From an uncultured Clostridium sp. (GTDB taxonomy: Bacteria > Cyanobacteriota > Vampirovibrionia > Gastranaerophilales > Gastranaerophilaceae), in assembly GCA_964620875.1 (NCBI GenBank), contig CAZUKK010000010.1:125-64124 (forward strand): a stretch of DNA of 64,000 nt, in the 5' to 3' direction. The translations under genes were made by a program, and so were the position numbers. Positions 1 through 11,844 of this stretch are shown piece after piece (positions within the stretch are counted from its first letter, which is position 1; each line of letters begins with the position of its first letter). The notes under the pieces were generated by a model. The model worked only from the letters and a program-made list of their open reading frames with translations, was not told the origin of the DNA and did no database searches.

Positions 1-407
1 TCAGACAACAATCCTAAAGATGCACAACAATGAATACCTTCAATTGACGCAACTTCTTTTATCATTTCTAAAATTTTATTAAAATCATTATCACTTGGTT
101 TTCTTCCTGATGTTACAATACAGAATCTTGTTGCACCATTTTCCTTTGCACTTAACGCAGCTAGTTTTACGGTTTCAACATCTAAAAGCGGATGACAGTC
201 AATTTCAGCATGGTTGTGTTTACTTTGTGCACAGTATTTGCAGTTTTCTGAACATGCTCCAGTTTTAGCACTAATTATTGAACAAGCCTCGACCTCATTA
301 TTAAAATTATCGGCAGTAATTTTATTTGCAATTTCTAAAAGTTCAGCAAGAGGTCTATCATACAACTTTACAAAATCATCTTTTGTGTAATTATTAAAAT
401 TATTCAT
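1..407 (-). CDS. bioB: biotin synthase, N-terminal part (gene runs off the left edge of the window)
   Basis: Own translation of the minus strand from the ATG at 405-407 gives MNNFNNYTKDDFVKLYDRPLAELLEIANKITADNFNNEVEACSIISAKTGACSENCKYCAQSKHNH...ENGATRFCIVTSGRK. It has the radical-SAM CxxxCxxC motif and BioB-like layout. It is absent from the ORF track because it is truncated. Confidence 0.8.
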   Translation of the reverse strand, partial: MNNFNNYTKDDFVKLYDRPLAELLEIANKITADNFNNEVEACSIISAKTGACSENCKYCAQSKHNHAEIDCHPLLDVETVKLAALSAKENGATRFCIVTSGRKPSDNDFNKILEMIKEVASIEGIHCCASLGLLS

Positions 408-480
408 AATCTACTCCTTTATATATTTTATGGTATAGCGAATAAATTTATATTAACACAAACATGTTTTCGTAAATGGG

Positions 481-517
481 TAAAAAATAAAAAAAGTCGG
501 GATTGTCCCGACTTTTT
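481..517 (-). terminator. Rho-independent hairpin terminator (bidirectional); would lie directly 3' of tRNA-Asn in an island-free configuration
   Basis: GTCGGGA-TTG-TCCCGAC stem-loop at 496-512, flanked by an A-run (481-495) and a T-run (513-517). Confidence 0.6.
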
Positions 518-519
518 GC

Positions 520-531
520 AATAAAAAACTC
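520..531. repeat. left copy of the 12-bp direct repeat AATAAAAAACTC (candidate attL core)
   Basis: Identical 12-mer at 11764-11775, overlapping the tRNA-Asn 3' end. This copy sits next to the terminator hairpin. Confidence 0.55.
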
Positions 532-692
532 ACTTTAGTGGACGATTTCAGAACTTTTTTATTAAAAAGTGTTGCATAAAAACATATTAAAATAATGATA
601 TTTATTCTTTTTTGTGTTTCTATATTAACATTCAGATTTACGAAAATAGTTCATGAAATATTACTAATCAATATATTAAAGGATATATAAAA

Positions 693-1340
693 ATGCAAGA
701 CTGGCAAAAATATGAGCAACAAATTTATGAAAAGTTTTCATCCAAATATGATGATTGTAAATTTGAAAAAAATTATCGCATTAAAGGCATCTATAGTAAA
801 TCAGATAGGCAAATTGATGTTGCTATTATAGGTGAAATTGCTGGTTTTACGCAATTGGGTATAATTGAGTGCAAATGTTATAATAGTAAAATTGATGTTA
901 AAACAGTAGATAGCTTTATAGGTTTTATGCAAGATGTAAGTGCTAATTTTGGAGTTATAATAACAACTTTAGGTTTTTCTGAAGGTGCAAAAAATAGAGC
1001 ACAAAATCAAAACATTCACTTAGACATTGTTGAATTAGATAAGCTTGAATACTACGAATTTACCCCAGATACAGATATTTGCCACATGTGTGATGATAAA
1101 TACAGAAATATTGTACATTGGGATAGGCATGATGTTGAAAACGCTTTTGATATTGGACATTGTGCATATTGTAATGAAACTCATATAAGATGTAAAAATT
1201 GCGGAGGAATAACCTCAATATCTGAAACCAATCAAGATGGTATTATAGAATGTTTAGGTGGGTGTGGTTTAAAAATTAAACATTATTACGATGAATGCAA
1301 TGAAGAATATTTTGAAATAATTGAAAAAAGTAATTATTAA
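693..1340 (+). CDS. PD-(D/E)xK (Mrr/restriction-endonuclease-like) nuclease fused to a C-terminal zinc-ribbon cluster
   Basis: SDRQIDVAI...GIIECKCY fits a D...ExK nuclease core. The C-terminal half has Cys/His pairs: CHMCDDK, HCAYCNETHIRCKNCGG and ECLGGCG. Confidence 0.55.
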   Translation: MQDWQKYEQQIYEKFSSKYDDCKFEKNYRIKGIYSKSDRQIDVAIIGEIAGFTQLGIIECKCYNSKIDVKTVDSFIGFMQDVSANFGVIITTLGFSEGAKNRAQNQNIHLDIVELDKLEYYEFTPDTDICHMCDDKYRNIVHWDRHDVENAFDIGHCAYCNETHIRCKNCGGITSISETNQDGIIECLGGCGLKIKHYYDECNEEYFEIIEKSNY

Positions 1341-1341
1341 A

Positions 1342-2064
1342 TTACAATTTAACTAAAATTTTTTGATTAGTAATTTCCTTATCACCAATTTGAGCATTCA
1401 TTTCATAAAATTCTTTTTTGCTTTGTGGGGGATGTGCAATATCTTTTAGTGAACCCAATTTAATAGTTATTGGCTCTATAATATTATTTTGCTTGATAGC
1501 CAATCTCCACTCATTTTGATATGAGAATTTATCAAACTTTTTGAAACAACCCATATCACCATAATGATTAAACTCATCAATATATTCAATAAAACCTAAT
1601 TTAGCACCCCATTGATTTTCTTTCAACTTTTCAGTTAGTCGTATTATAAATTCATTTGAATTATGAATAATAACAACATAATCTTTGCCATCTGCAAAAT
1701 TTCTTTCATCTAATAGTAAGTCATTTTCTAATGCCCATACTGTATCAATGGAAGTCATACTATATAAATGGGAGTATTCAGGACAATTTATATTCATTGC
1801 AACAGATAATGTTCCACCCTCTCTTGTTAAGGTAAATTGTTCATCATCAGTACCTAGTGTTATTGTAATATTTTCCAATCCTTTTCCGGCATAATATTCT
1901 TCAGTTGCTTCAAATCTATCAGCACGACCATCACCATTATCTTCAAGTTTTATAAAATAATCGAAAGTATTTAAATACAATAATCCATCATTGTATAGCA
2001 TTTCCATATGTTCTTTTGTGCCAAATTTTAATAATCCAATATAGTTTTTACTTCCAATTTTCAT
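1342..2064 (-). CDS. hypothetical protein, downstream partner of the NDT-like gene (weak DUF2971-like resemblance only)
   Basis: 240-aa ORF. Its ATG overlaps (TAATG) the stop of the extended upstream reading frame. Motifs LLYLNTFDYF and YQNEWRL are present, but no confident family call can be made by eye. Confidence 0.5.
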   Translation of the reverse strand: MKIGSKNYIGLLKFGTKEHMEMLYNDGLLYLNTFDYFIKLEDNGDGRADRFEATEEYYAGKGLENITITLGTDDEQFTLTREGGTLSVAMNINCPEYSHLYSMTSIDTVWALENDLLLDERNFADGKDYVVIIHNSNEFIIRLTEKLKENQWGAKLGFIEYIDEFNHYGDMGCFKKFDKFSYQNEWRLAIKQNNIIEPITIKLGSLKDIAHPPQSKKEFYEMNAQIGDKEITNQKILVKL

Positions 2065-2157
2065 TATATTATAACTGCCTCAATTCTTTTTCTTAGAGCC
2101 TCTTTAAATTCATCAAGTTTATTATAATCCCACAAAATTATATTTCTATGGTTTAGG

Positions 2158-3204
2158 TCAAAATGCACCTTCTCTAATTATATTGCCTTTATCGTCTTTT
2201 TGAGTATTTAGCCATTCTTGATTACAGGTGTAAATAACAGGTAATCCTAAGCCATACGCAAAACCAGCTTCAAAATACACACCGCCTCTATAGCCAGTTA
2301 AATCTGCTACGACAAACTTACTTTTTCTGATTTCTGCAATCATTTCATCATTAATATCATTACAATGTTCTTTACAGTCTATTCTCATAGCGGTGTATTT
2401 GTCTTTTGATGTCGAAATTGCAGGCTCAATAGCATTTTCATAAGTTTTTTGCATATCATATTTGCATTCTTTTATGTTTTCATCTCTATTAAACCACATA
2501 GCAACAAATGCTTGCTTAGATAGGTTTGATGAATTATGCTTTTCCATATATTCAATGCCTTTACTTGTCACTGCAACATGGTATTGAGGATATGATATGT
2601 ATTCGCAATAGCAATCGTAAAAACTCTTGCCAACATTGAAATTATATTGATAATGTTTCTTATCATACCTACTACTTTGATTAGATGGCAAAACTTTCAA
2701 TTCTACACTAGTACAAAATTTGTTTTCGCATAAAAACATCAATATATTATACAGTTCTGTATTATTTTTACAATAAAATAAAGGAAAAATTGAATTTATA
2801 TCAATTTGAACTGTATCGCCAAAAAATCTTGTATTTTTGATTAAATACTCCAACACTATTTTAGTTTTATCTAAAAGACTTGGAATGTTGTATATATCAT
2901 CAATTTCTTTTAATCTTATTTCAGTTAGATTTTCAAAACCTAATCTTTGATTATTTACCAAATTTTGTAAATATCTTTTCTTGACTACATATCTAACTTT
3001 TAAGCGTTGATTATCGTCAAACTCATCAGGACAATTTGTTAGCAAATCATTAGCTGCTGCATCACAAATGAAACTCCCACAAAAAGGACATTCTACAACA
3101 CCTGCATTTCTTTTAACATTTTCCAAATTAAAACAAAGTGGACACATTTCTAATTGATTATCAACCATTTGCATATTCCTTATTTTGTATTTATCATAAC
3201 CCAA
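2158..3204 (-). CDS. zinc-ribbon + nucleoside 2-deoxyribosyltransferase-like (NDT/TIR-like Rossmann fold) protein; 3' end apparently frameshifted
   Basis: The N-terminus has a CPLC...CPFC zinc ribbon. The C-terminal FVAMWF...VVADLTGYRGGVYFEAGFAYGLGLPVIY resembles the NDT-type signature with an ExG acid. The ORF stops at 2158, but a 31-codon continuation runs to 2064 in the adjacent frame. Confidence 0.6.
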   Translation of the reverse strand: MGYDKYKIRNMQMVDNQLEMCPLCFNLENVKRNAGVVECPFCGSFICDAAANDLLTNCPDEFDDNQRLKVRYVVKKRYLQNLVNNQRLGFENLTEIRLKEIDDIYNIPSLLDKTKIVLEYLIKNTRFFGDTVQIDINSIFPLFYCKNNTELYNILMFLCENKFCTSVELKVLPSNQSSRYDKKHYQYNFNVGKSFYDCYCEYISYPQYHVAVTSKGIEYMEKHNSSNLSKQAFVAMWFNRDENIKECKYDMQKTYENAIEPAISTSKDKYTAMRIDCKEHCNDINDEMIAEIRKSKFVVADLTGYRGGVYFEAGFAYGLGLPVIYTCNQEWLNTQKDDKGNIIREGAF

Positions 3205-3319
3205 ATATTTCTTTCTAAAAATCTAGAAAGTGAAAAATTTTAAGTTTTCTTAAAAAAAATTTTTTGGCTAAAATCCAATAATATCTTAAAATTTAAAAAA
3301 TATTTAAAAATATTTTCCC

Positions 3320-3356
3320 AAAAAGTGAAATGGTTACATAAAACATCCCTTATAAT
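3320..3356 (+). promoter_or_regulatory. candidate promoter/operator of the island replication operon
   Basis: AAAAAGTGAAATGGT (3320-3334), then 16 nt, then TATAAT (3351-3356). The same 15-mer plus a -10 element recurs at 10176-10211. Confidence 0.35.
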
Positions 3357-3412
3357 AGAATTAAGGACGTCCGCACATTGAAACTAAAAATTTAAAGAAA
3401 GAGGTATCAATC

Positions 3413-3604
3413 ATGACTATTCCAAATGAAAGTATGATTAATGAAACTGTTGTGCATTTTAGCAAGTATAGGAAACTACCTATATCATCTAATGAAGCGA
3501 TGAAAACAATTGTTAATTTTAATGGCTTTATACACTTATTACTTCGATTAGATAAAAAGAGAAGTATTATGAATACAGGAAGGGAACTAAAAAATGTCGG
3601 ATAA
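3413..3604 (+). CDS. small hypothetical protein (first gene of the island plus-strand operon)
   Basis: 63-aa ORF with an AGAGG ribosome-binding site upstream. It overlaps the next gene's start by 11 nt. No recognisable motif. Confidence 0.3.
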   Translation: MTIPNESMINETVVHFSKYRKLPISSNEAMKTIVNFNGFIHLLLRLDKKRSIMNTGRELKNVG

Positions 3605-5078
3605 AATAATGGAATTACCTGAAATGCCGGATATTTTCAGAAAAATGGTAATATTACTTATGAAAAGACATAGAAAAGCTAGTATAGGCATGATTTTAAA
3701 TATGGTAATTTGTAAAACTGCTTTTGCACTATGCTCTAAAAGAATAAAATATCGTGAAATTAAAAATACAGGATTTCCAAATTGGTACACTATAATTTTT
3801 GCACCTTCAGGTTGTGGAAAAGATAGAATAAATGATGATTTAGATAAATATTTTTTCAAAAATTTTAGACTTTGGTTTGACCAAAAAGCAATGGATTGGT
3901 ACAATGAACAAGTTAGAAAAATTGAAAGTATAGCTGAAGATTTATTTCAAGATACTAAATCACATAGTGAAGCCAAGAAGAAAGCTTTTATTAAAGATGC
4001 TAAAGAAAAGATAAGACCATTAGTATTTGAAGTTTATAATGGAACAGCAGAAGGTATATTTGAAGAAGCTAAAGTTCGTTCTAAAAGTGATATCGGTGCT
4101 ATTTTAATTACAATTACCGAATTTTCAAAATATTTTCTTAATTCAAAAACCGAAGATAAACAATTCTTCTCGTTTTTACTTATTGCTTACGGTGGAAAAT
4201 TTCCTTCAAAATGTACCAAAGGTGATAAAAGAGAAAATGATGTTATTGGAGTTCCTTTAAATTGTTTGTTAATGTGTGATTATAGCTTATTTGAACACCC
4301 AAAAGCAAAACAAGATTTAATGTTAGAATTACAAACAGGATTTGCTAGAAGGGCGATAATAACTTTTATACCGCATATTGTATTTGAAAATGATTTTGAT
4401 GCAGAAACTTCTTTAAAAAATGACTATATATTTTTTGAACAAGCAAGTTTAATAAATGAGGAATTTATATCTATATTTAGTAGTATTCAAGACCATTTTG
4501 AATATAATATGCCAGATGATGTTTTACTCTTTTTAAAGAAGTATAAATACAAATTAGAACAAGAAGCTAATACTACTGAAAATGAGTTACTAAGAAAAGA
4601 AATTCTTGATAGAGAATTGAAAACGATTAAATTAGCAACCATCTTTGCACCGTTCAATCATTCTGAAAAAATAATTACATTAACAGATGTAAAACAAGCA
4701 ATTTCAGTAATTGAATATTTAAGTAAAGATTTCAGAATGTTTGTAGGATATAAACCTAAACGTATGGATAAGTATGATGAACTATTTAATTTCTTTTTAG
4801 AAAATTTAGACAAGAAATTCAATAGAATGCACATTAGAGAAAAAGCAAAACAGTTTGGATTTACTCTCAAAAATTTTAAAGAAGATTTAAATAATGCTCT
4901 TGTTTTTGTAAAAGAACTTGCCAATGAGTCTGGTTATAACTTATTTGAAGAACCATATAACAATAATACCGGCATGTATTATTGGCTATCTAAAAAAGTA
5001 AATGATGATGAGTTAGGACATTGTTCTTTAAATAAACTCGTAAACAATAATCTAAAAAATCCACAAAATGTAGCATAG
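3594..5078 (+). CDS. P-loop NTPase, putative replication/helicase-like protein of the element (DUF3987-like?)
   Basis: Walker A-like FAPSGCGKDR and Walker B-like LNCLLMCDYS. It sits immediately upstream of a primase gene, as in satellite/prophage replication modules. Confidence 0.45.
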   Translation: MSDKIMELPEMPDIFRKMVILLMKRHRKASIGMILNMVICKTAFALCSKRIKYREIKNTGFPNWYTIIFAPSGCGKDRINDDLDKYFFKNFRLWFDQKAMDWYNEQVRKIESIAEDLFQDTKSHSEAKKKAFIKDAKEKIRPLVFEVYNGTAEGIFEEAKVRSKSDIGAILITITEFSKYFLNSKTEDKQFFSFLLIAYGGKFPSKCTKGDKRENDVIGVPLNCLLMCDYSLFEHPKAKQDLMLELQTGFARRAIITFIPHIVFENDFDAETSLKNDYIFFEQASLINEEFISIFSSIQDHFEYNMPDDVLLFLKKYKYKLEQEANTTENELLRKEILDRELKTIKLATIFAPFNHSEKIITLTDVKQAISVIEYLSKDFRMFVGYKPKRMDKYDELFNFFLENLDKKFNRMHIREKAKQFGFTLKNFKEDLNNALVFVKELANESGYNLFEEPYNNNTGMYYWLSKKVNDDELGHCSLNKLVNNNLKNPQNVA

Positions 5079-5176
5079 TTATTGGATTGTAAGATTTTTT
5101 CAAAATATAAAATCTGAAAATCCATAACAAGTAAAGATTATATGGATTTTTCAGATTTATAAAAGGCAGTGTAAAA

Positions 5177-6064
5177 ATGAGTAAATTAACTTTAGAAAAC
5201 GTAATTACATATTTGGGGCAACCACACAAAAAATGCAATCATGAACTTATTTGGCAATGCCCTATTTGTAAAGATAGAGGTAAAGATAATTTAAAATACA
5301 ACATAGATAAAAATGTTTTATATTGTTTTGCAAATTCAGACCACTCAAAAACAATTTTAAAAGAAATAAATATAAATAACGGTAGATTTTATATAAAAGA
5401 CGAAACCAGTCTAATAAATAAGCCTGTAGAACCTGCAAATTTAACTTTAGAACAAACTTTAAAATATGAAGATTATATGTACCAATGTAATGAAATTTTG
5501 CTTCGTGATAAAAACTTGCTGAAATTTCTATATGATAAAAGAGGAATAACTCCTAATACTGTTTCGATGACTAAATTAGGCTATGATAAGAGAAAACAAA
5601 TATGGACTATTCCAACAATTAAATATAGTTGTAATTCAAACCACGTTATAGGATTTGAATTTAGACCTCATAATTTATCTAAAATCGGTTTATATCGTAC
5701 AAAAGGCTCTCCAAGTTGTTTAGCTATGATAAACGATTATTATACTGGTATTGATACACTATGCGTTATAGAAGGATATTTTGATGGTTATGCACTATTA
5801 CAATATCTTTCAGAATGCAAAGAAGATAAATATTATCATATAGTTACGCCTTCAAATGGCGTTCAATCATTAATGAAATTCATGCCGGATATTAATTACA
5901 ACAAATACAAAAAGTATTATCTTTTTATTGATAATGATGAAGTTTCAAACAAAATTAAATCACAAATTGTTGAAAAATATCCACAATTTGAGACAATAAA
6001 TATGATTTGTGATTGCAAGGATTTCAATGAACATTATCTAAAATGTATAAAAGGGAGGAAGTAA
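5177..6064 (+). CDS. DNA primase-like protein (zinc finger + TOPRIM)
   Basis: Zinc finger WQCPICKDRGKDNL...LYCFANSDH. TOPRIM-like CVIEGYFDGYAL (Glu) and LFIDNDEVSNK (DxD). Confidence 0.65.
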   Translation: MSKLTLENVITYLGQPHKKCNHELIWQCPICKDRGKDNLKYNIDKNVLYCFANSDHSKTILKEININNGRFYIKDETSLINKPVEPANLTLEQTLKYEDYMYQCNEILLRDKNLLKFLYDKRGITPNTVSMTKLGYDKRKQIWTIPTIKYSCNSNHVIGFEFRPHNLSKIGLYRTKGSPSCLAMINDYYTGIDTLCVIEGYFDGYALLQYLSECKEDKYYHIVTPSNGVQSLMKFMPDINYNKYKKYYLFIDNDEVSNKIKSQIVEKYPQFETINMICDCKDFNEHYLKCIKGRK

Positions 6065-6465
6065 TGCCAAAAGCAGATGGATACAAAAATTTAATTCCAG
6101 CTAATAAGCGAAGCAAGGAAGAAGCTAGGATGTTAGGACAAAAAGGCGGTATAAAATCTGGAGAAGCTCGCAGAATGCGTAAAACACTAAAGGAACATTT
6201 ATTACTATTACTTGAAGAAAATGATTTGCAAGAAAACCTTTGTTTAGCACTTATAGATAAAGCTTTAGAAGGCGACACAAAAGCATTTCAAATAATAAGA
6301 GATACTATTGGAGAAAAGCCGATTGATAAAGTTTGCATGACTACTGCTAATGTAAACTTGCAACAATCCTACAATGAAGTTAAAGCATTAATTGAGGCTC
6401 AAAAACAAAAACTTATTGAAGAAAACCGACGCGAGGTACTTCAAATCGAAGAACGGGAATATTAA
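6064..6465 (+). CDS. small basic protein, possibly terminase small-subunit-like/DNA-binding
   Basis: The start is moved to the ATG at 6064, which has a GGGAGGAAG ribosome-binding site and a TAATG overlap with the primase stop. The N-terminus KNLIPANKRSKEEARMLGQKGGIKSGEARR resembles small phage packaging/DNA-binding proteins, from memory only. Confidence 0.3.
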   Translation: MPKADGYKNLIPANKRSKEEARMLGQKGGIKSGEARRMRKTLKEHLLLLLEENDLQENLCLALIDKALEGDTKAFQIIRDTIGEKPIDKVCMTTANVNLQQSYNEVKALIEAQKQKLIEENRREVLQIEEREY

Positions 6466-6550
6466 CCCTCCCCCTACCCCTCAAAAAGTAGTAAAAATAA
6501 GCCTATAAACATGGATAGTACCCCTAGAAAAATTTTTCAAATTTCAAGGG

Positions 6551-7360
6551 TTATTCATATTTGCTTAATGTTTCAAGCATATCATAACCCAATTCGGTTA
6601 ATACGATACAAATGTCCCCACTATCATGAAACACCTTGATAAGATTTAATTGTTTTAACAAATCCAAACTTGTCTCATCGCATATATTATTATCAAAAAT
6701 ATATAATCTGTTATAAATATTTACATTTTCAGGATAAGGTACATTAATATGTATTTCAGGAATTGAATTTGACCTTATCATCTCATATTGTCCATCATAC
6801 TCTACAACATCACCAACTTCTAAATTTCCTGAAATTTCATCAGCAGTATCAGCAATTAAACATTTATTATTATAATTCTCTAATTCATCAGATATATCAT
6901 TAACTAAATATTTTTTACCTTTCTGAAAATCAAAAACAGCTTTTAGAAGTCTCGCTTCTTGTCCACCAATTTTAGATAAAATTTCTGCATATTGAATTTT
7001 TATTGGTGTATATTTAGAAGAAGTATCCAGTAACAATTTTGCCCATAAAGCAAACATAATTTCTTCATGTTCTACTGACAATTTTTCAAATAATGGTATT
7101 GCAGCTTTTGGTGGAATTGGATTTACTTCAATATTATATTTGTTTTTCAACTCTTGAGCCTTTTGAGCAATCAGTAATGTTGTTTCGGCTCTATATCTTT
7201 CAACTTGTGCATTTCTAACAGATGGAAAAAATAATGCTACTAAATTTTCTAAACCACTAAAAACTTTTTCAAAACTTACTAATGTATTATTTGAAAAATT
7301 ATCACTTGCGATATTATTATCAGAAAGCATACTATTTGAAACATTATTGTTGTCTATCAA
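6551..7360 (-). CDS. Abi-alpha / DUF4393-like protein, downstream partner of the reverse transcriptase
   Basis: IPPKAAIPLFEKLSVEHEEIMFALWAKLLLDTSSKYTPIKIQYAEILSKIGGQEARLLKAVF matches my recollection of the DUF4393/Abi_alpha core (..P..l.P.le.as.e.de.l...WA.LL......hp.f.eIL.ql...Ea.iL). It lies 24 nt after the RT stop. Confidence 0.5.
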   Translation of the reverse strand: MIDNNNVSNSMLSDNNIASDNFSNNTLVSFEKVFSGLENLVALFFPSVRNAQVERYRAETTLLIAQKAQELKNKYNIEVNPIPPKAAIPLFEKLSVEHEEIMFALWAKLLLDTSSKYTPIKIQYAEILSKIGGQEARLLKAVFDFQKGKKYLVNDISDELENYNNKCLIADTADEISGNLEVGDVVEYDGQYEMIRSNSIPEIHINVPYPENVNIYNRLYIFDNNICDETSLDLLKQLNLIKVFHDSGDICIVLTELGYDMLETLSKYE

Positions 7361-7384
7361 ATTATTCTCCTTAAATTTTCAAAT

Positions 7385-8908
7385 CTAATCGTCATAATAG
7401 AATATATCTATTTCATCATCTCTAATTTCCGCATCAAGATTACTTAATTCCTGATAATTAATAATTGGAGTGGTGTTTACTATATTTTTTAATCCATTGC
7501 TAACCCAATCTATGTTCCATACTGGAGGTAATGTTTTATCCATAACTAGATTACAAATACTTGAATTATAATTCTGGAAGAAGTCATCCTTATATATTAT
7601 TCTTTGTAACCATATTTCCATATATTCCGTATTTGGTTTTTCTTCAAGTTTTGTTTTTATTTTTTGTACAATATCAAATCTTTTATCAAAATCTGAAATA
7701 TATGATAATGATTTTCCTATTATTGCTGCTATTGTTGGGTAAACTCTAGGATTAGAGCAAGCAATAGTAAAAGCAATACTAATAACAGGAACTATATTTT
7801 TATCATCTTTTTTGAATTTTAAGTTCTTATTATATTCAGATAATAAAGCTTGTAAGCTCCCAGAATTAGGAAATTTTTTAGAAAAATCATAAATTCGTAT
7901 AATTTGTTTTTGCAAATTTCCTTTATTAGGACAGAATTTATTTAAATCCTCCAAGTGCGATATTCTATATAATTTATCTTTTTTTAATGAACCCTCAATA
8001 ATATCTTCTGTTTTTTGTGTTTTTGTCGCATTAAGTTTAAAACCTAATTCAATCATAACTTCTGTTAAAAATTTAACTATTTGACTTCCTGTTTGCGAAT
8101 TATTAACAAAAATACGATAATCATCTCTATATCTAATAATTTTATAATTGTCAACTTTTGCATCATCTAATTTTTTAGACAATAATAAATCAGCGTAGCC
8201 TAAAACAATTTCAGCTATAAAATCCATTAAAACTGAACCCTGAGGTATGCCATTCGTTTGATTATATGTCATACAACGAATTAAATCGTCAATGTCATTT
8301 CCCTCTAATTTAATTGTTTTATCTTTGATTGATTTTTTTGCATTATCTTTTCCATGCAACGCCCATGCGATAGTATGAGTGTAAATTGAACCATAGCAAT
8401 CAGTTATATCTGTTGAAAATAAATATGAATACTCCAATGCTTGTTCTATTGATAATTGCTCAACTTCATTCCACCAATTCGCGACTTGACTAGCTTGTTG
8501 CCTTTGTTTAGGTGATTGTAATACAGGGATGGCTTGACTCAAAATATTTTTATTATTTTGAAATTCTTTAAATCTTTTTTTTATTAAATCCCAAACGCTA
8601 TTCTGAGTTATATAATTTACTAAAGCTACATATATTATAGGATTTAATAGTTGGAAAGGTCGCCAAGCATAACACCCATCTTTATTATTATAAATAACAT
8701 AATTTACATCATCATAACTTGATGGAGGGATTTTATTGTTTACATAAAAAGTTTTTAATTCTTTGTTCTGCAACTTTTTATCTAATTTATCTAATAATTT
8801 CTGGAAGCTAAAATAAGTAGGCAATAAAATATTAGAATAATTTTCTTCTTTTAGAAAATAATTTTTTGCTTTACTTGCCGATAGACTTAAAACATTTTTT
8901 GCAGCCAA
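7385..8908 (-). CDS. reverse transcriptase, Abi/UG (defence-associated) type
   Basis: RT motifs FSTDITDCYGSIYTH (A), NGIPQGSVLMDFIAEIVL (B), IIRYRDDYRIFV (C, YxDD class) and LGFKLNATKTQ (D/E). There is a long helical C-terminal region and no maturase/endonuclease or Cas context. Start is TTG with AGGA upstream. Confidence 0.8.
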   Translation of the reverse strand: MAAKNVLSLSASKAKNYFLKEENYSNILLPTYFSFQKLLDKLDKKLQNKELKTFYVNNKIPPSSYDDVNYVIYNNKDGCYAWRPFQLLNPIIYVALVNYITQNSVWDLIKKRFKEFQNNKNILSQAIPVLQSPKQRQQASQVANWWNEVEQLSIEQALEYSYLFSTDITDCYGSIYTHTIAWALHGKDNAKKSIKDKTIKLEGNDIDDLIRCMTYNQTNGIPQGSVLMDFIAEIVLGYADLLLSKKLDDAKVDNYKIIRYRDDYRIFVNNSQTGSQIVKFLTEVMIELGFKLNATKTQKTEDIIEGSLKKDKLYRISHLEDLNKFCPNKGNLQKQIIRIYDFSKKFPNSGSLQALLSEYNKNLKFKKDDKNIVPVISIAFTIACSNPRVYPTIAAIIGKSLSYISDFDKRFDIVQKIKTKLEEKPNTEYMEIWLQRIIYKDDFFQNYNSSICNLVMDKTLPPVWNIDWVSNGLKNIVNTTPIINYQELSNLDAEIRDDEIDIFYYDD

Positions 8909-8957
8909 ATTTCATTCCTATATTGATTAAATTGATGTTGTAATAATAGCACAAAAA

Positions 8958-9290
8958 TCAGGACTTTAGATATTTTAAAGCTTCAACAACTTTATATAAA
9001 TACATCAATTCACTATCTGATGCATTGTTTATTGAGTTGTTGAGCAATTTTATCAATTCCTCTCTGCTTTTAATATGTCCAAAACTAAATAATTCTTTTT
9101 CTTCAACTTCCAAAGCATTAGCTAATTTTTCTAATGTTTCAGCTGTCATAAATCTTTTACCGCATTCAATATTACTTAAATTTGGTTTATCCATATCAAT
9201 TTTTTCAGCAAGCACTTCTTGAGTTAAATTCTTACTCTTTCTTATTTCTTGTATTCTTGCACCTAATTTTTGTTTCAACGATTTCATCAT
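8958..9290 (-). CDS. XRE-family helix-turn-helix transcriptional regulator
   Basis: LGARIQEIRKSKNLTQEVLAEKIDMDKPNLSNIECGKR is a classic HTH_3 (cI/Cro-like) motif. It is on the same strand as the RT and 49 nt upstream of it. Confidence 0.85.
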   Translation of the reverse strand: MMKSLKQKLGARIQEIRKSKNLTQEVLAEKIDMDKPNLSNIECGKRFMTAETLEKLANALEVEEKELFSFGHIKSREELIKLLNNSINNASDSELMYLYKVVEALKYLKS

Positions 9291-9460
9291 AAACCCTCCT
9301 ACACATGATATATGTAGGATTTGTAAAAAAGAACTTGCTTATTTGCTATCAAACGTATAATTTAGTAGCTGTTTATGCTATTATAATTTTGTAAAAATAA
9401 CATTTTATACTATTTTTATCATTAAAAGTTAGTAAAATGGCATTCAAAAAAGGAGTAAAA

Positions 9461-9682
9461 ATGAAAACGATTTTAAAAATTATTCCAATACTCTTAATCT
9501 GTGGCATAGCATTTGTAGCATTTATGTGCGTAAAAGCAGAAAGAAATTATGATACTAGACAAAAGCAGATTTTATATGGCGAAAAACGAGGCAAAGACAT
9601 GCAATATTGCAATACAAGAGCAAGTATTGGTATAGAAGATTATACAAGCTGCATGCATAGAATGAGTGAAAATTATAGATAA
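9461..9682 (+). CDS. small membrane protein
   Basis: The start is moved to the ATG at 9461, which has an AGGAG 5 nt upstream. The N-terminal TM segment is ILKIIPILLICGIAFVAFMCV. Confidence 0.45.
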   Translation: MKTILKIIPILLICGIAFVAFMCVKAERNYDTRQKQILYGEKRGKDMQYCNTRASIGIEDYTSCMHRMSENYR

Positions 9683-9700
9683 ATTTATAGAGGGTAAATT

Positions 9701-10174
9701 ATGAAAAAGATTATTATTACAATGTTTTTGTTATCACTAACAGTTAGTGCCTGTTATGCAGATAGCTTAGATAATGCATTAAATGCCCAATCAAGAGCTT
9801 TAAATGCCGGAACAATATATAGTGGAGTTAATACTGCCGCCGGAGTTGCCAATACTGTATCTAATGTTCAAACCAATACAAGCATAAGACGTAGAATTGA
9901 TGCTGAAACTGCATTAATAAAAAAACAAGCAGCATTAGAAGGAATTGATTTAAGAGATGCCAAAGATATACAAAACGAACACATGGCACTTTATTTTAAA
10001 TCTCGTTATTTTTTAATAAGAACTAAAAAACAAGCAAAATATGAAAAAGATGAAGAAATGCTTAAATTAATTAAAAAATATTGGAAACCATGGACAACCG
10101 AAGATGCTATTTATGCTGCTGAAAAAGTTATTGAATTACAAGAAAAACGTAAAAAAGAATCTTCAAAATTATAA
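9701..10174 (+). CDS. lipoprotein (island moron, function unknown)
   Basis: Signal peptide with lipobox LTVSAC (Cys18). The remainder is helical and Lys/Glu-rich. Confidence 0.55.
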   Translation: MKKIIITMFLLSLTVSACYADSLDNALNAQSRALNAGTIYSGVNTAAGVANTVSNVQTNTSIRRRIDAETALIKKQAALEGIDLRDAKDIQNEHMALYFKSRYFLIRTKKQAKYEKDEEMLKLIKKYWKPWTTEDAIYAAEKVIELQEKRKKESSKL

Positions 10175-10175
10175 T

Positions 10176-10211
10176 AAAAAGTGAAATGGTGGCTGAAAAA
10201 TATGCTATAAT
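10176..10211 (+). promoter_or_regulatory. candidate promoter/operator of the recombinase gene
   Basis: AAAAAGTGAAATGGT (10176-10190), then 15 nt, then TATAAT (10206-10211). This is a duplicate of the motif at 3320-3356. Confidence 0.35.
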
Positions 10212-10311
10212 AGATACATAAACTTAAGTTTAGACCAAATTATAGTATTAGATTAAATTACATGCTTTCATATATTAGAAAGTCCTTATTTGGAAAGGCT
10301 TAGGTGTTATT

Positions 10312-11811
10312 ATGACCAAAACTAATGTGTTAAAAGTTGTATTGTATGCTAGAGTATCAAGTAAAGAACAGGAAAGAGAAGGTTATTCTATTCCTGCTCA
10401 ACTTGAACTATTAAGGAATTATGCCGACAAAAACAATATGATGATAGTCAAAGAATTTGAAGATGTTGAAACCGCAAAATGTACTGGGAGAACTAATTTT
10501 AATGAAATGCTCAAATTTATTAAATCTTCAAAAGATTGTAAAACTATTTTAGTAGAAAAAACAGATAGATTATATCGAAATCTACCGGATTATGTAACAG
10601 TTGATAATTTAAATCTTAATATTCATTTTGTAAAAGAGGGGTGTATTTTATCTGAAAATTCTCACTCTAGCGAAAAATTTATACATGGAATAAAAGTCTT
10701 ACAAGCCAGACAGTATATTCAGAATTTAGGCGAAGAAGTTAAAAAGGGACTTACTCAAAAGGCTAAAGAGGGATATGTAACAGGAAAACCTCCTTATGGA
10801 TACAAAAAAATTGATAAAAAGCAAAGTGTTATTGATGAAGAAAAATCTTCTTTTGTTCTTAGAGCGTTTGAACTATATTCTAAAGGTAATTTATCATTAT
10901 CAAAACTTGCATGCCAGTTATATAAAGAAGGCTATATCTTTAAAGATAATTGTCCTAAAGCATATAAATCTCAATTAGAAAATATTTTAAAAAATCCATT
11001 TTACTATGGGATGATTGTATTTAAAGGTACGTTATATGAAGGTAAACATGAAGCGTTGATTACAAAAGAATTGTTTGACCTTACTCAATTGGCATTTCGC
11101 AAAGACAATAAACCTAAACATATAGTTGCAAAAGAATTTTTATTTTCCGGCATGGTAAAATGTGCGAATTGTGGCTGTAATTTATCTGGCGAAATTAAAA
11201 AAGGTAAATATATTTATTATTCTTGTACTGGAGGCAAAGGTGAATGCCCCCAACAACATATTTACATACCTGAAATAAAACTTGAAGATAAAATACTAGA
11301 AGCTTTAGGGCAAATATATATTACAGATGAACATAAAACTTGGATTTTAAAAGCTTTGAAAGAAAGTTTTAAAGATGAACAAAAATATATGCTAGAACAA
11401 TTAAATAGTTTAAATGCTAAGAAACAAAAATTAAGAGCAAGAATAGATGGTTTATATCTTGATAAAATTGATGGTAAAATTTCAGAAGAATTTTGGCAAG
11501 AGAGACATAATAATTGGACACAATCATTAATAACTATTCAGAATAATATAAATGCTTATGAAATGGCAAATATAGACTTTATTAGCAAAGGTTCAAGATT
11601 TTTAAAAATCTGCAGAGAAATTAAAGAACTATACTTATATGGAAATAACAAAGAAAGAAAAGAATTAATCAATTATGTACTTCAGAACTTTTCTATGGAT
11701 GGCGAAAACCTAAGCTATGAGTACAAAAAACCCTTTGACATATTCGTCAAAGGATTAAATCGTAATAAAAAACTCCCCAGGCTGGACTCGAACCAGCAAC
11801 CCTTCGATTAA
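10312..11811 (+). CDS. large serine recombinase (integrase of the element)
   Basis: N-terminal resolvase domain VVLYARVSSKEQEREGYSIPAQ with the catalytic Ser. A recombinase domain (GKPPYGYK) follows, then the zinc ribbon CANCGC...YYSCTGGKGECPQQH and a coiled-coil tail. The last 12 codons read into tRNA-Asn. Confidence 0.9.
   Translation: MTKTNVLKVVLYARVSSKEQEREGYSIPAQLELLRNYADKNNMMIVKEFEDVETAKCTGRTNFNEMLKFIKSSKDCKTILVEKTDRLYRNLPDYVTVDNLNLNIHFVKEGCILSENSHSSEKFIHGIKVLQARQYIQNLGEEVKKGLTQKAKEGYVTGKPPYGYKKIDKKQSVIDEEKSSFVLRAFELYSKGNLSLSKLACQLYKEGYIFKDNCPKAYKSQLENILKNPFYYGMIVFKGTLYEGKHEALITKELFDLTQLAFRKDNKPKHIVAKEFLFSGMVKCANCGCNLSGEIKKGKYIYYSCTGGKGECPQQHIYIPEIKLEDKILEALGQIYITDEHKTWILKALKESFKDEQKYMLEQLNSLNAKKQKLRARIDGLYLDKIDGKISEEFWQERHNNWTQSLITIQNNINAYEMANIDFISKGSRFLKICREIKELYLYGNNKERKELINYVLQNFSMDGENLSYEYKKPFDIFVKGLNRNKKLPRLDSNQQPFD
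11764..11775. repeat. right copy of the 12-bp direct repeat AATAAAAAACTC (candidate attR core)
   Basis: Identical to 520-531. It overlaps the discriminator and 3' end of tRNA-Asn and the codons NKKL of the recombinase. Confidence 0.55.
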
Positions 11812-11844
11812 CAGTCGAATGCTCCGCCATTGAGCTACTGAGGA
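11773..11844 (-). tRNA. tRNA-Asn (anticodon GTT)
   Basis: The reverse complement folds as a cloverleaf. The acceptor is TCCTCAG/CTGGGGA, the anticodon stem is TTCGA/TCGAA with loop CTGTTAA, and the T-arm is GCTGG-TTCGAGT-CCAGC. No CCA is encoded. Confidence 0.9.

Follow-up and report, generated by a model that had tools for sequence, protein, structure and literature searches.

Two overlapping genes in the cargo slot of an integrative element are candidates for independent abortive-infection-type defence genes

The effectors of type II-A retrons (Retron-Eco1/Ec86 and Sen2) combine a nucleoside 2-deoxyribosyltransferase (NDT)-like domain with a winged-helix domain, act by abortive infection (Abi) and deplete adenine-containing nucleotides (PMC7736814; bioRxiv 10.1101/2023.08.16.553469). 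For proteins in which an NDT domain is joined to an Abi N-terminal domain, a role as Abi toxins has been predicted (PMC3710099), and in Swarozyc a TIR-like NADase and a winged-helix-type domain that binds a phage protein are joined in a single protein (bioRxiv 10.64898/2026.05.01.722283). DUF2971 has been classed as ADP-ribosyltransferase (ART)-like and akin to DarT and AbiGi, with a conserved Tyr (motif II) and an [E/Q]xE (motif III) (PMC12522546). Aristaios is a validated lactococcal single-gene DUF2971 antiphage system (PMC11381338) and interferes with phage transcription (PMC13064643). Here we compare with these systems two minus-strand genes, A and B, found in a stretch of 64,000 nucleotides (nt) of contig CAZUKK010000010.1 (hereafter the window, to which all coordinates refer). 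In this gut genome of the Melainabacteria/Gastranaerophilales the two genes are carried at one end of an integrative element of about 11 kb (approximately 517-11,811) that is inserted at tRNA-Asn and the far end of which is bounded by a serine recombinase gene.

We consider it reasonably probable that A and B are two independent single-gene defence candidates of the abortive-infection type, stacked head to tail in a variable cargo slot of the island. An earlier interpretation made from the letters of the window (hereafter the sequence-only reading) had taken them for a dedicated two-gene system; the motifs, the frameshift in A, the TAATG overlap of the genes and the convergent nuclease gene on which it was built were all found in the sequence. 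The features of the two genes are as follows.

3204 (TTG) to TGA 2158-2160, minus strand: open reading frame of gene A, 348 amino acids (aa)
2158..3174, minus strand: in-frame part of gene A, 336-338 codons, from ATG 3174 or ATG 3168 to the premature TGA 2158-2160
about 3144-3079, minus strand: zinc ribbon of gene A
about 2886-2533, minus strand: winged-helix-like region of gene A
from about 2520, minus strand: NDT/TIR-like domain of gene A
from 2508, minus strand: FVAMWF of gene A
2271-2269, minus strand: presumed catalytic Glu of gene A, E300 in orthologue numbering
about 2165..2166, minus strand: 2-bp deletion in gene A, one GT/TG unit of GGTGTGCAT missing
2064..2168, minus strand: 3' remnant of gene A, out of frame, from the frame translation
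2062..2066, minus strand: TAATG stop/start overlap of repaired gene A (TAA) and gene B (ATG), read from the sequence
1342..2064, minus strand: gene B, 240 aa, an intact open reading frame

Neither gene is a chance open reading frame, each having hundreds to thousands of homologues, and these homologues are distributed independently. A scan of one genome per species gave 561 loci with a relative of A, of which the best 80 were examined. Gene B was located beside A in one of these 80, a Melainabacteria metagenome-assembled genome (MAG) that carries the same island (L001, 83% identity), and in none of the other 79. Among 105 B-centred loci a gene A was located upstream in seven, all of them the same island, in which B has at least 71% identity with the B of the window, and in 0 of the other 98; one further B locus has an A 4 kb away. 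In L093 both families are represented in one type I restriction-modification (RM) operon and yet are not adjacent, as hsdS and hsdR lie between them. The flanking genes of A differed from locus to locus in 79 of the 80 loci, and when a conserved partner of A was sought by all-against-all clustering of the neighbours, RM subunits and lineage-specific genes alone were obtained. A recurrent neighbour of about 240 aa in the Dehalococcoidia loci of A was considered as a possible B and rejected as unrelated (hhalign probability 0.1%).

Within the island lineage the overlap described by the sequence-only reading is both real and conserved, the 1-nt overlap of A and B (gap -1) being present in every orthologous locus. 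It is on this conservation of the TAATG in all island variants, on an adjacency that persists at about 59-85% (A) and 71-75% (B) identity and on the fact that both folds would use NAD+ or nucleotides that an alternative could be based, in which A and B form one dedicated two-component system with a nucleotide-cleaving or signal-making A translationally coupled to B as its obligate partner (effector, sensor or immunity protein). We consider this unlikely, given that the two genes co-occur in one island lineage alone (no such pair is present among the 79 A loci and 98 B loci counted above that lie outside it), that two RM genes separate the families in L093, that A has been pseudogenised three separate times with B intact and that the operon of the relatives contains a third Abi gene, AbiH. 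The sequence-only reading had itself named a failure of the two genes to co-occur elsewhere as the finding that would speak against a pair; they do co-occur in close variants of the island and not outside it. The pair in the window is not to be annotated as a two-gene system. The A-B-(AbiH) operon is physically real, and the genes in it behave like self-contained modules that have come to be stacked at a cargo hot spot.

The copy of A in the window is disrupted. The TTG at 3204 is probably not its true start, and likelier candidates are the ATG at 3174, which has AAGGA just 5' of it, and the ATG at 3168, the position at which the called orthologues begin (MVDNQ…). CPLC…CPFC is present near the N-terminus of the product, with FVAMWF, VVADLT and GVYFEAGFAYGLGLPVIY further on. 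Past the premature TGA the adjacent frame reads on, in three-frame translations, as VHFDLNHRNIILWDYNKLDEFKEALRKRIEAVII to a stop, and this remnant codes for the invariant F337-D338 and W347, the near-invariant H336 and the C-terminal helix, all of which are missing from the product (secondary structure of this part in a model of an intact orthologue: E345-347 and H349-366). The product of the window (P0001) has 336 aa compared with 366-371 aa in intact orthologues, the premature stop costing the last 34 residues. In a DNA alignment of three orthologous loci (L001, L082 and L090) the relatives read AGAGAGGGTGTGCAT where the window reads AGAGAAG--GTGCAT. Programmed frameshifting was rejected, since the protein of the orthologues is read in a single frame and the window differs from them by the loss of 2 bp. 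Without H336-F337-D338 and W347, and with its last strand and C-terminal helix gone, the window copy is a pseudogene and very probably inactive. Three island variants, namely the window, L081 and L191, each have a separate lesion in gene A, every time with an intact B and, where it is present, an intact AbiH: in L081 (4885-6001) A is broken by a change of an A8 run to A9 at about codon 66, and in L191 (3001-4115) the break falls at the sensor/NDT junction and leaves 216 + 145 aa. Such repeated breakage could reflect recurrent decay of a costly gene or, possibly, phase variation.

Gene A encodes a zinc ribbon, a winged-helix-like region and a putative N-glycosidase-type domain of the NDT/TIR superfamily with an invariant Glu. 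When 45 diverse homologues (36-83% identity) were aligned, C9, C12, C27, C30, F221, A223, M224, F337-D338 and W347 were invariant, as was the block D289-L-T-G-x-R294-G-G-x-Y-x-E300-A-G, and H336 was nearly so (at least 90% of the 45 sequences). The family comprises 2,439 homologue matches, and phrog_16139 matches its C-terminal domain (E 1e-30). For this domain the NDT-type assignment of the sequence-only reading was borne out: all 45 members matched PF05014 (NDT), although weakly and just short of the Pfam cut-off (best E 1.3e-6), the Glu of YFEAG was invariant, and the top Foldseek matches were the NDTs 6qai (5e-4), 2a0k (1e-3), 9emw and 7o62 (E 5e-4 to 1.5e-2, probability 0.99-1.0, about 160 aligned columns), followed by the SARM1 TIR domain (E 6e-3), DNPH1 and BcmB. 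NDTs have a conserved acidic nucleophile (Glu) in a D…G…E-x-G segment that follows strand 3. Both D289 and E300 are within the stretch aligned to PF05014 positions 43-111, and the Glu may, judging from this alignment, be equivalent to Glu98 of the Lactobacillus enzyme. A sequence search of solved structures with the NDT domain gave no meaningful match with a narrow or a broad profile. The sole PADLOC match of A was to the CBASS 'TIR effector' model PDLC00733 (E 1.7e-9, residues 221-319), and Pfam TIR and DUF4062 were absent from the 25 most frequent families at E<=1 when the 45 members were scanned.

The N-terminus matched a Lar-type zinc-ribbon model in 15 of the 45 members. In the AlphaFold2 (AF2) model of an 85%-identical intact orthologue (predicted local distance difference test score, pLDDT, 87) a beta zinc ribbon is followed by three helices and a beta-hairpin, and then by an alpha/beta domain. 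The middle region, which had been described as a region of unknown fold, was hence one for which the prediction (helix-helix-helix plus beta-hairpin) is confident, and it appears winged-helix-like in the model; the sole weak sequence hint from the PDB for this region was the PadR-like regulator 1xma (E 0.1).

The genomic contexts of A are those of RM systems and mobile elements. Among 130 flanking proteins the commonest Pfam families were DNA methylases, SWI2/SNF2, ResIII, type I S subunits and HSDR_N, with integrase, transposase and PIN/HicB/Polbeta families also frequent, and PADLOC concurred. At least two type I RM subunits were present in 8 of 79 loci, and several of these loci place A between hsdM/S and hsdR. 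Streptococcus prophages encode relatives of the C-terminal domain in their lysogeny module, where the corresponding hypothetical genes are flanked by cro and the repressor/integrase. SMODS (CD-NTase) was found neither among the scanned island genes nor among the 25 families shown for the neighbours of A, and RVT_1 was not one of the 25 families (one match or more apiece) shown for the 130 neighbours of other A homologues.

That A is embedded in operons of other defence genes, that it is always the first gene of the island operon and that it has a winged-helix-like domain would also fit a ligand-sensing transcription factor of the CapW/BrxR kind, in which the zinc ribbon and winged helix would act on DNA and the NDT-like domain would sense a nucleotide, with B, AbiH or RM operons under its control. 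The catalysis-defining NDT/TIR residues D289, R294, E300 and HFD are, however, invariant (H336 nearly so) across the 45 members, the neighbours of A are highly variable and often on the opposite strand, and A was lost three times without loss of B or AbiH, counter to what is expected of an essential toxin repressor; we regard a regulatory role as quite unlikely.

Gene B has the motifs K13-F-G15, L-Y30-x-N32-T and K176-x5-Y182-Q183-x-E185-W-R187. Among its conserved residues K13 and G15 are at the end of strand 1 and Y30 and N32 in strand 2, and D49 and E52 are conserved as well; the segment K176-x5-Y182-Q183-N-E185-W-R187 runs into a strand that starts with E185. Over the family Y30 is nearly invariant and Q183 and E185 are invariant. 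A word-indexed search gave 56 relatives, and in an exhaustive profile search 4,695 clusters at 50% identity were obtained (550 at E<=1e-30), almost all of which consist of stand-alone proteins with a length of 205-260 aa. The AF2 model of B has a pLDDT of 93, and phrog_26561 matches the protein (E 5e-17). No match of B to Pfam, NCBIfam or PADLOC was found, and a sequence search of solved structures gave no meaningful match with a narrow or a broad profile. That no named system could be assigned to the locus agrees with the sequence-only reading: for B PADLOC and NCBIfam returned nothing, and for A the generic CBASS TIR effector match alone was obtained.

A relationship of B to DUF2971 was suggested by several comparisons. 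PF11185 (DUF2971) was weakly matched by 18 of 34 close members (best E 0.009) and by 2 of 89 distant members (best E 0.0065), AbiGi was matched by 1 of the 34 close members, and the window protein had no match to PF11185 at E<=10. When the B family was aligned with hhalign to a 55-sequence DUF2971 alignment, a probability of 38-53% (E 1.3e-4 to 3.3e-4) was obtained over about 45 columns centred on F.K…Y[QE]xEWR, and the spacing of K-x5-Y-[EQ]-x-E-W-R is identical in the two alignments. By this comparison Y30 and Q183/E185 may correspond to ART motifs II and III, and gene B is a probable shorter, distant relative of the DUF2971 ART-like superfamily with K/Y/QxE motifs. The DUF2971 lead given for B by the sequence-only reading survives as a remote relationship that is weak and consistent, although the PF11185 threshold was missed.

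The commonest neighbours of B were type I RM families, DUF4391 and integrases, and a type I RM system was present in 5 of 82 B loci. Homologues with 42-46% identity (L093, L095 and L103) are found in the order hsdM-B-hsdS(-hsdR) with overlaps of 1-4 nt. In L093 (4192-11858) the type I RM operon consists of hsdM, a B homologue, hsdS, hsdR and an A-family gene, with overlapping or near-overlapping codons. A 56%-identical homologue (L086:2067-6699) is located 7 nt after a DpnII operon (two methylases and the endonuclease) and adjoins a SMODS + SLATT pair, the whole forming a compact defence island. Another copy of B sits after DUF4391, and plasmid copies were annotated as hypothetical proteins alone. 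Distant relatives (21-28% identity) were found on 16 IMG/VR viral contigs, and Phage_Mu_F matches occur among the neighbours of B; these viral relatives may be phage-borne, perhaps packaged, ADP-ribosyltransferase-like proteins. On seven of the viral contigs (L172, L174-L176, L179 and L184-L185) the distant relatives are beside genes of about 460-490 aa.

Some phages carry ADP-ribosyltransferases, and B, perhaps together with A, might serve the mobile element or a phage, for example as an ADP-ribosyltransferase that modifies host machinery or counters host restriction. The viral relatives, the Phage_Mu_F matches, the match to phrog_26561 and the location of the pair on a mobile element are in line with such a role. 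Against it, the closest B homologues outside the island are embedded in type I RM operons of cellular genomes or follow DpnII, which is the pattern of host defence accessories, and B had no match in 50,697 sequenced phage genomes; we therefore give a benefit to the element or to phage a low probability.

The remaining features of the island and its borders are listed here.

491-517, minus strand: intrinsic-terminator-like hairpin, from a terminator scan
517-581, minus strand: conserved island-end block, with 85-87% identity to what directly follows AbiH in relatives
693..1340, plus strand: convergent Mrr_cat PD-(D/E)xK nuclease gene (PF04471, E 1.2e-12)
3413-3604, plus strand: 63-aa gene
3594-5078, plus strand: DUF3987/primase-like gene, from Pfam/PHROG
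5177-6064, plus strand: Toprim primase gene, from Pfam/PHROG
6043-6465, plus strand: island gene
6551-7360, minus strand: Abi_alpha gene, 269 aa, from Pfam/PHROG
7385-8908, minus strand: reverse transcriptase (RT) gene, 507 aa (RVT_1, YRDD; phrog_12132, E 3e-94)
10312-11811, plus strand: large serine recombinase gene, from Pfam/PHROG
11773-11844, minus strand: tRNA-Asn

The cargo slot has exchanged its content. In every island relative the operon is A-B-AbiH (PF14253), with AbiH after B in L001, L081-85, L090-91 and L187-191, and in the window the AbiH slot of the relatives (582-1341) is occupied by the opposite-strand Mrr gene, whose stop is 1 nt from the stop of B and whose product has a Cys/His-rich C-terminus. 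When the window was compared with the relatives by blastn, no AbiH remnant was found in the window and no Mrr homologue in the relatives, and the 60-bp end block with its terminator hairpin (491-581) has been kept. In L187, the nearest relative, identity is 97.6% over 2744-9054 and drops to 82.7% over 1342-2520, which comprises B and the 3' half of A; the part in between, 2521-2743, did not align. The cargo end of the island is therefore mosaic, which suggests recombination within gene A. AbiH was not found beside other A or B homologues, and jackhmmer finds it in the island lineage alone; on this ground the idea that A or B generally goes together with AbiH was rejected.

At the other end of the island, about 39 nt at the 3' terminus of the serine recombinase gene are shared with the opposite-strand tRNA-Asn, and this overlap marks the end at which the island is integrated. 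No convincing direct repeats of an attachment (att) site were found for the island, as expected for a serine recombinase. The same element was found in human-gut metagenomes and in the Melainabacteria MAG, and its part beyond the pair (3413-11844) is syntenic with L001, L082-85 and L187. Rfam detected tRNA-Asn alone and no retron non-coding RNA, and a promoter scan was uninformative in this AT-rich DNA (24 sites found vs 26 expected). The reverse transcriptase gene followed by Abi_alpha (6551-8908) is kept in all relatives, and the two look like a second, separate defence candidate of the island, similar to Abi systems or defence-associated reverse transcriptases. Outside the island, a biotin synthase-like gene (1-435, minus strand) flanks it on the cargo side, and a CxxxCxxC radical-SAM motif was seen by eye in its translation.

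AbiH was recently described as SIR2-like (PMC13064643), and the ancestral A-B-AbiH operon therefore strings together three NAD+-using folds. One could imagine that A (NDT/TIR-like), B (ART-like) and AbiH (SIR2-like), co-transcribed and with codons that overlap, form a single NAD+-centred immune module, in which, for example, one enzyme could make or remove an ADP-ribose-derived signal or mark and another could write or read it. Separately, the B family might provide type I RM systems with a back-up from within their operons, much like PrrC, and would then be an ADP-ribosylating effector of wide occurrence. We hold these broader proposals to be unlikely. Finally, it is highly improbable that A is an ordinary salvage 2-deoxyribosyltransferase in an arrangement without conflict meaning, for although several database sources name its homologues 'nucleoside 2-deoxyribosyltransferase' and PF05014 is the sole Pfam domain match, A has about 215 extra N-terminal residues (zinc ribbon and winged helix) that are absent from salvage NDTs of about 150 aa, falls under the Pfam cut-off and is patchily distributed in islands, prophages and RM operons with repeated pseudogenisation; the sensor-like N-terminus and the variable RM, toxin-antitoxin, integrase and prophage contexts of the family likewise exclude the housekeeping role that the sequence-only reading had set against its own proposal.

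Several points weigh against taking A and B for independent defence genes. The enzymatic activities, the triggers and the defence phenotype of A and B are ones that we infer. The scores of repaired window A (27.5 bits) and of P0002 (27.8 bits) for PF05014 are under the gathering cut-off of 28.8, and the 2-bp deletion in A could be an assembly error. The overlap of A and B is kept over all island variants down to about 59% identity of A, which also fits a functional pair. The neighbour counts for A and B are raw counts without a genome-wide background, and many contigs in the survey of B were too short to contain neighbours. The link of B to DUF2971, weak but consistent, rests on about 45 columns and many sub-threshold matches, and in Foldseek searches of the PDB and BFVD with the B model nothing significant was found (an exotoxin A chain at E 0.6). 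According to a published review, fold searches with AbiGi were likewise without matches (PMC13064643).

If A and B are nevertheless independent abortive-infection genes, A would be a single-chain sensor-effector. Its Lar-like zinc ribbon and winged-helix-like domain would recognise an infection cue, either nucleic acid or a phage protein, and its NDT/TIR domain would then cleave NAD+ or (deoxy)nucleotides and so starve phage replication. This mechanism, the likeliest for A, is proposed by analogy with the retron type II-A effectors, TIR-like NADases and the predicted NDT-Abi fusions. The 2-bp deletion in the window also uncouples the translation of A from that of B. Gene B would most likely use NAD+ to ADP-ribosylate a nucleic acid or protein target, as proposed for DUF2971/Aristaios.

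Despite their large size, neither the A nor the B family is named, covered by a Pfam model or included as a PADLOC system. If the proposal holds for A, NDT-type N-glycosidase effectors, so far tied to retrons, would also exist as stand-alone sensor-effectors, and if it holds for B, the ART-like class of Aristaios/DUF2971 would extend to a far larger family of shorter proteins that are often located between hsdM and hsdS. The island illustrates clearly how defence genes in a cargo slot are swapped (AbiH for an Mrr nuclease) and how they decay (three independent lesions of A). The importance of A and B lies mainly in the sizes of their families and their placement within RM operons, and less in the locus of the window.

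Like the retron type II-A effectors, A joins an NDT-like domain to a winged-helix-type domain, but the domain order is reversed, with an N-terminal sensor, a C-terminal NDT domain and an extra zinc ribbon. Furthermore, no RT or msr-msd adjoins A, which is usually stand-alone, and A had no sequence-level PADLOC match to retron effectors. The RT of the island is about 4 kb from A, beyond opposite-strand replication genes, and belongs to a separate operon with Abi_alpha. With Swarozyc (DUF4062 plus a helix-turn-helix/winged AUX domain) A shares the combination of recognition and a TIR-like domain in a single protein, and the domain order differs. Among TIR effectors (CBASS PDLC00733 and SARM1), A matches the CBASS model and has a SARM1-like fold, whereas NDTs are the better match in both sequence and fold; unlike CBASS, A has no CD-NTase or other signalling partner.

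Two patterns are common to gene B and Aristaios/DUF2971, one C-terminal (K-x5-Y-[EQ]-x-E-W-R) and one N-terminal (hhK…Y/W…F), but B falls short of DUF2971 by about 80 residues, has neither of the motifs that are invariant there (NDP and SILMWSHYA…H.GFC) and forms a large family of its own. PrrC sits inside a type I RM operon (the EcoprrI/prr locus) as an accessory suicide gene, and this is resembled by the B homologues between hsdM and hsdS with overlapping codons and by the A homologues between hsdM/S and hsdR. PrrC has, however, no homology to A or B, and there is no RM system in the island of the window, so that a guard relationship of A or B with RM is speculation. AbiH (PF14253) is a classical single-gene lactococcal Abi found on mobile elements; it directly follows B in every relative and is replaced in the window by the Mrr gene.

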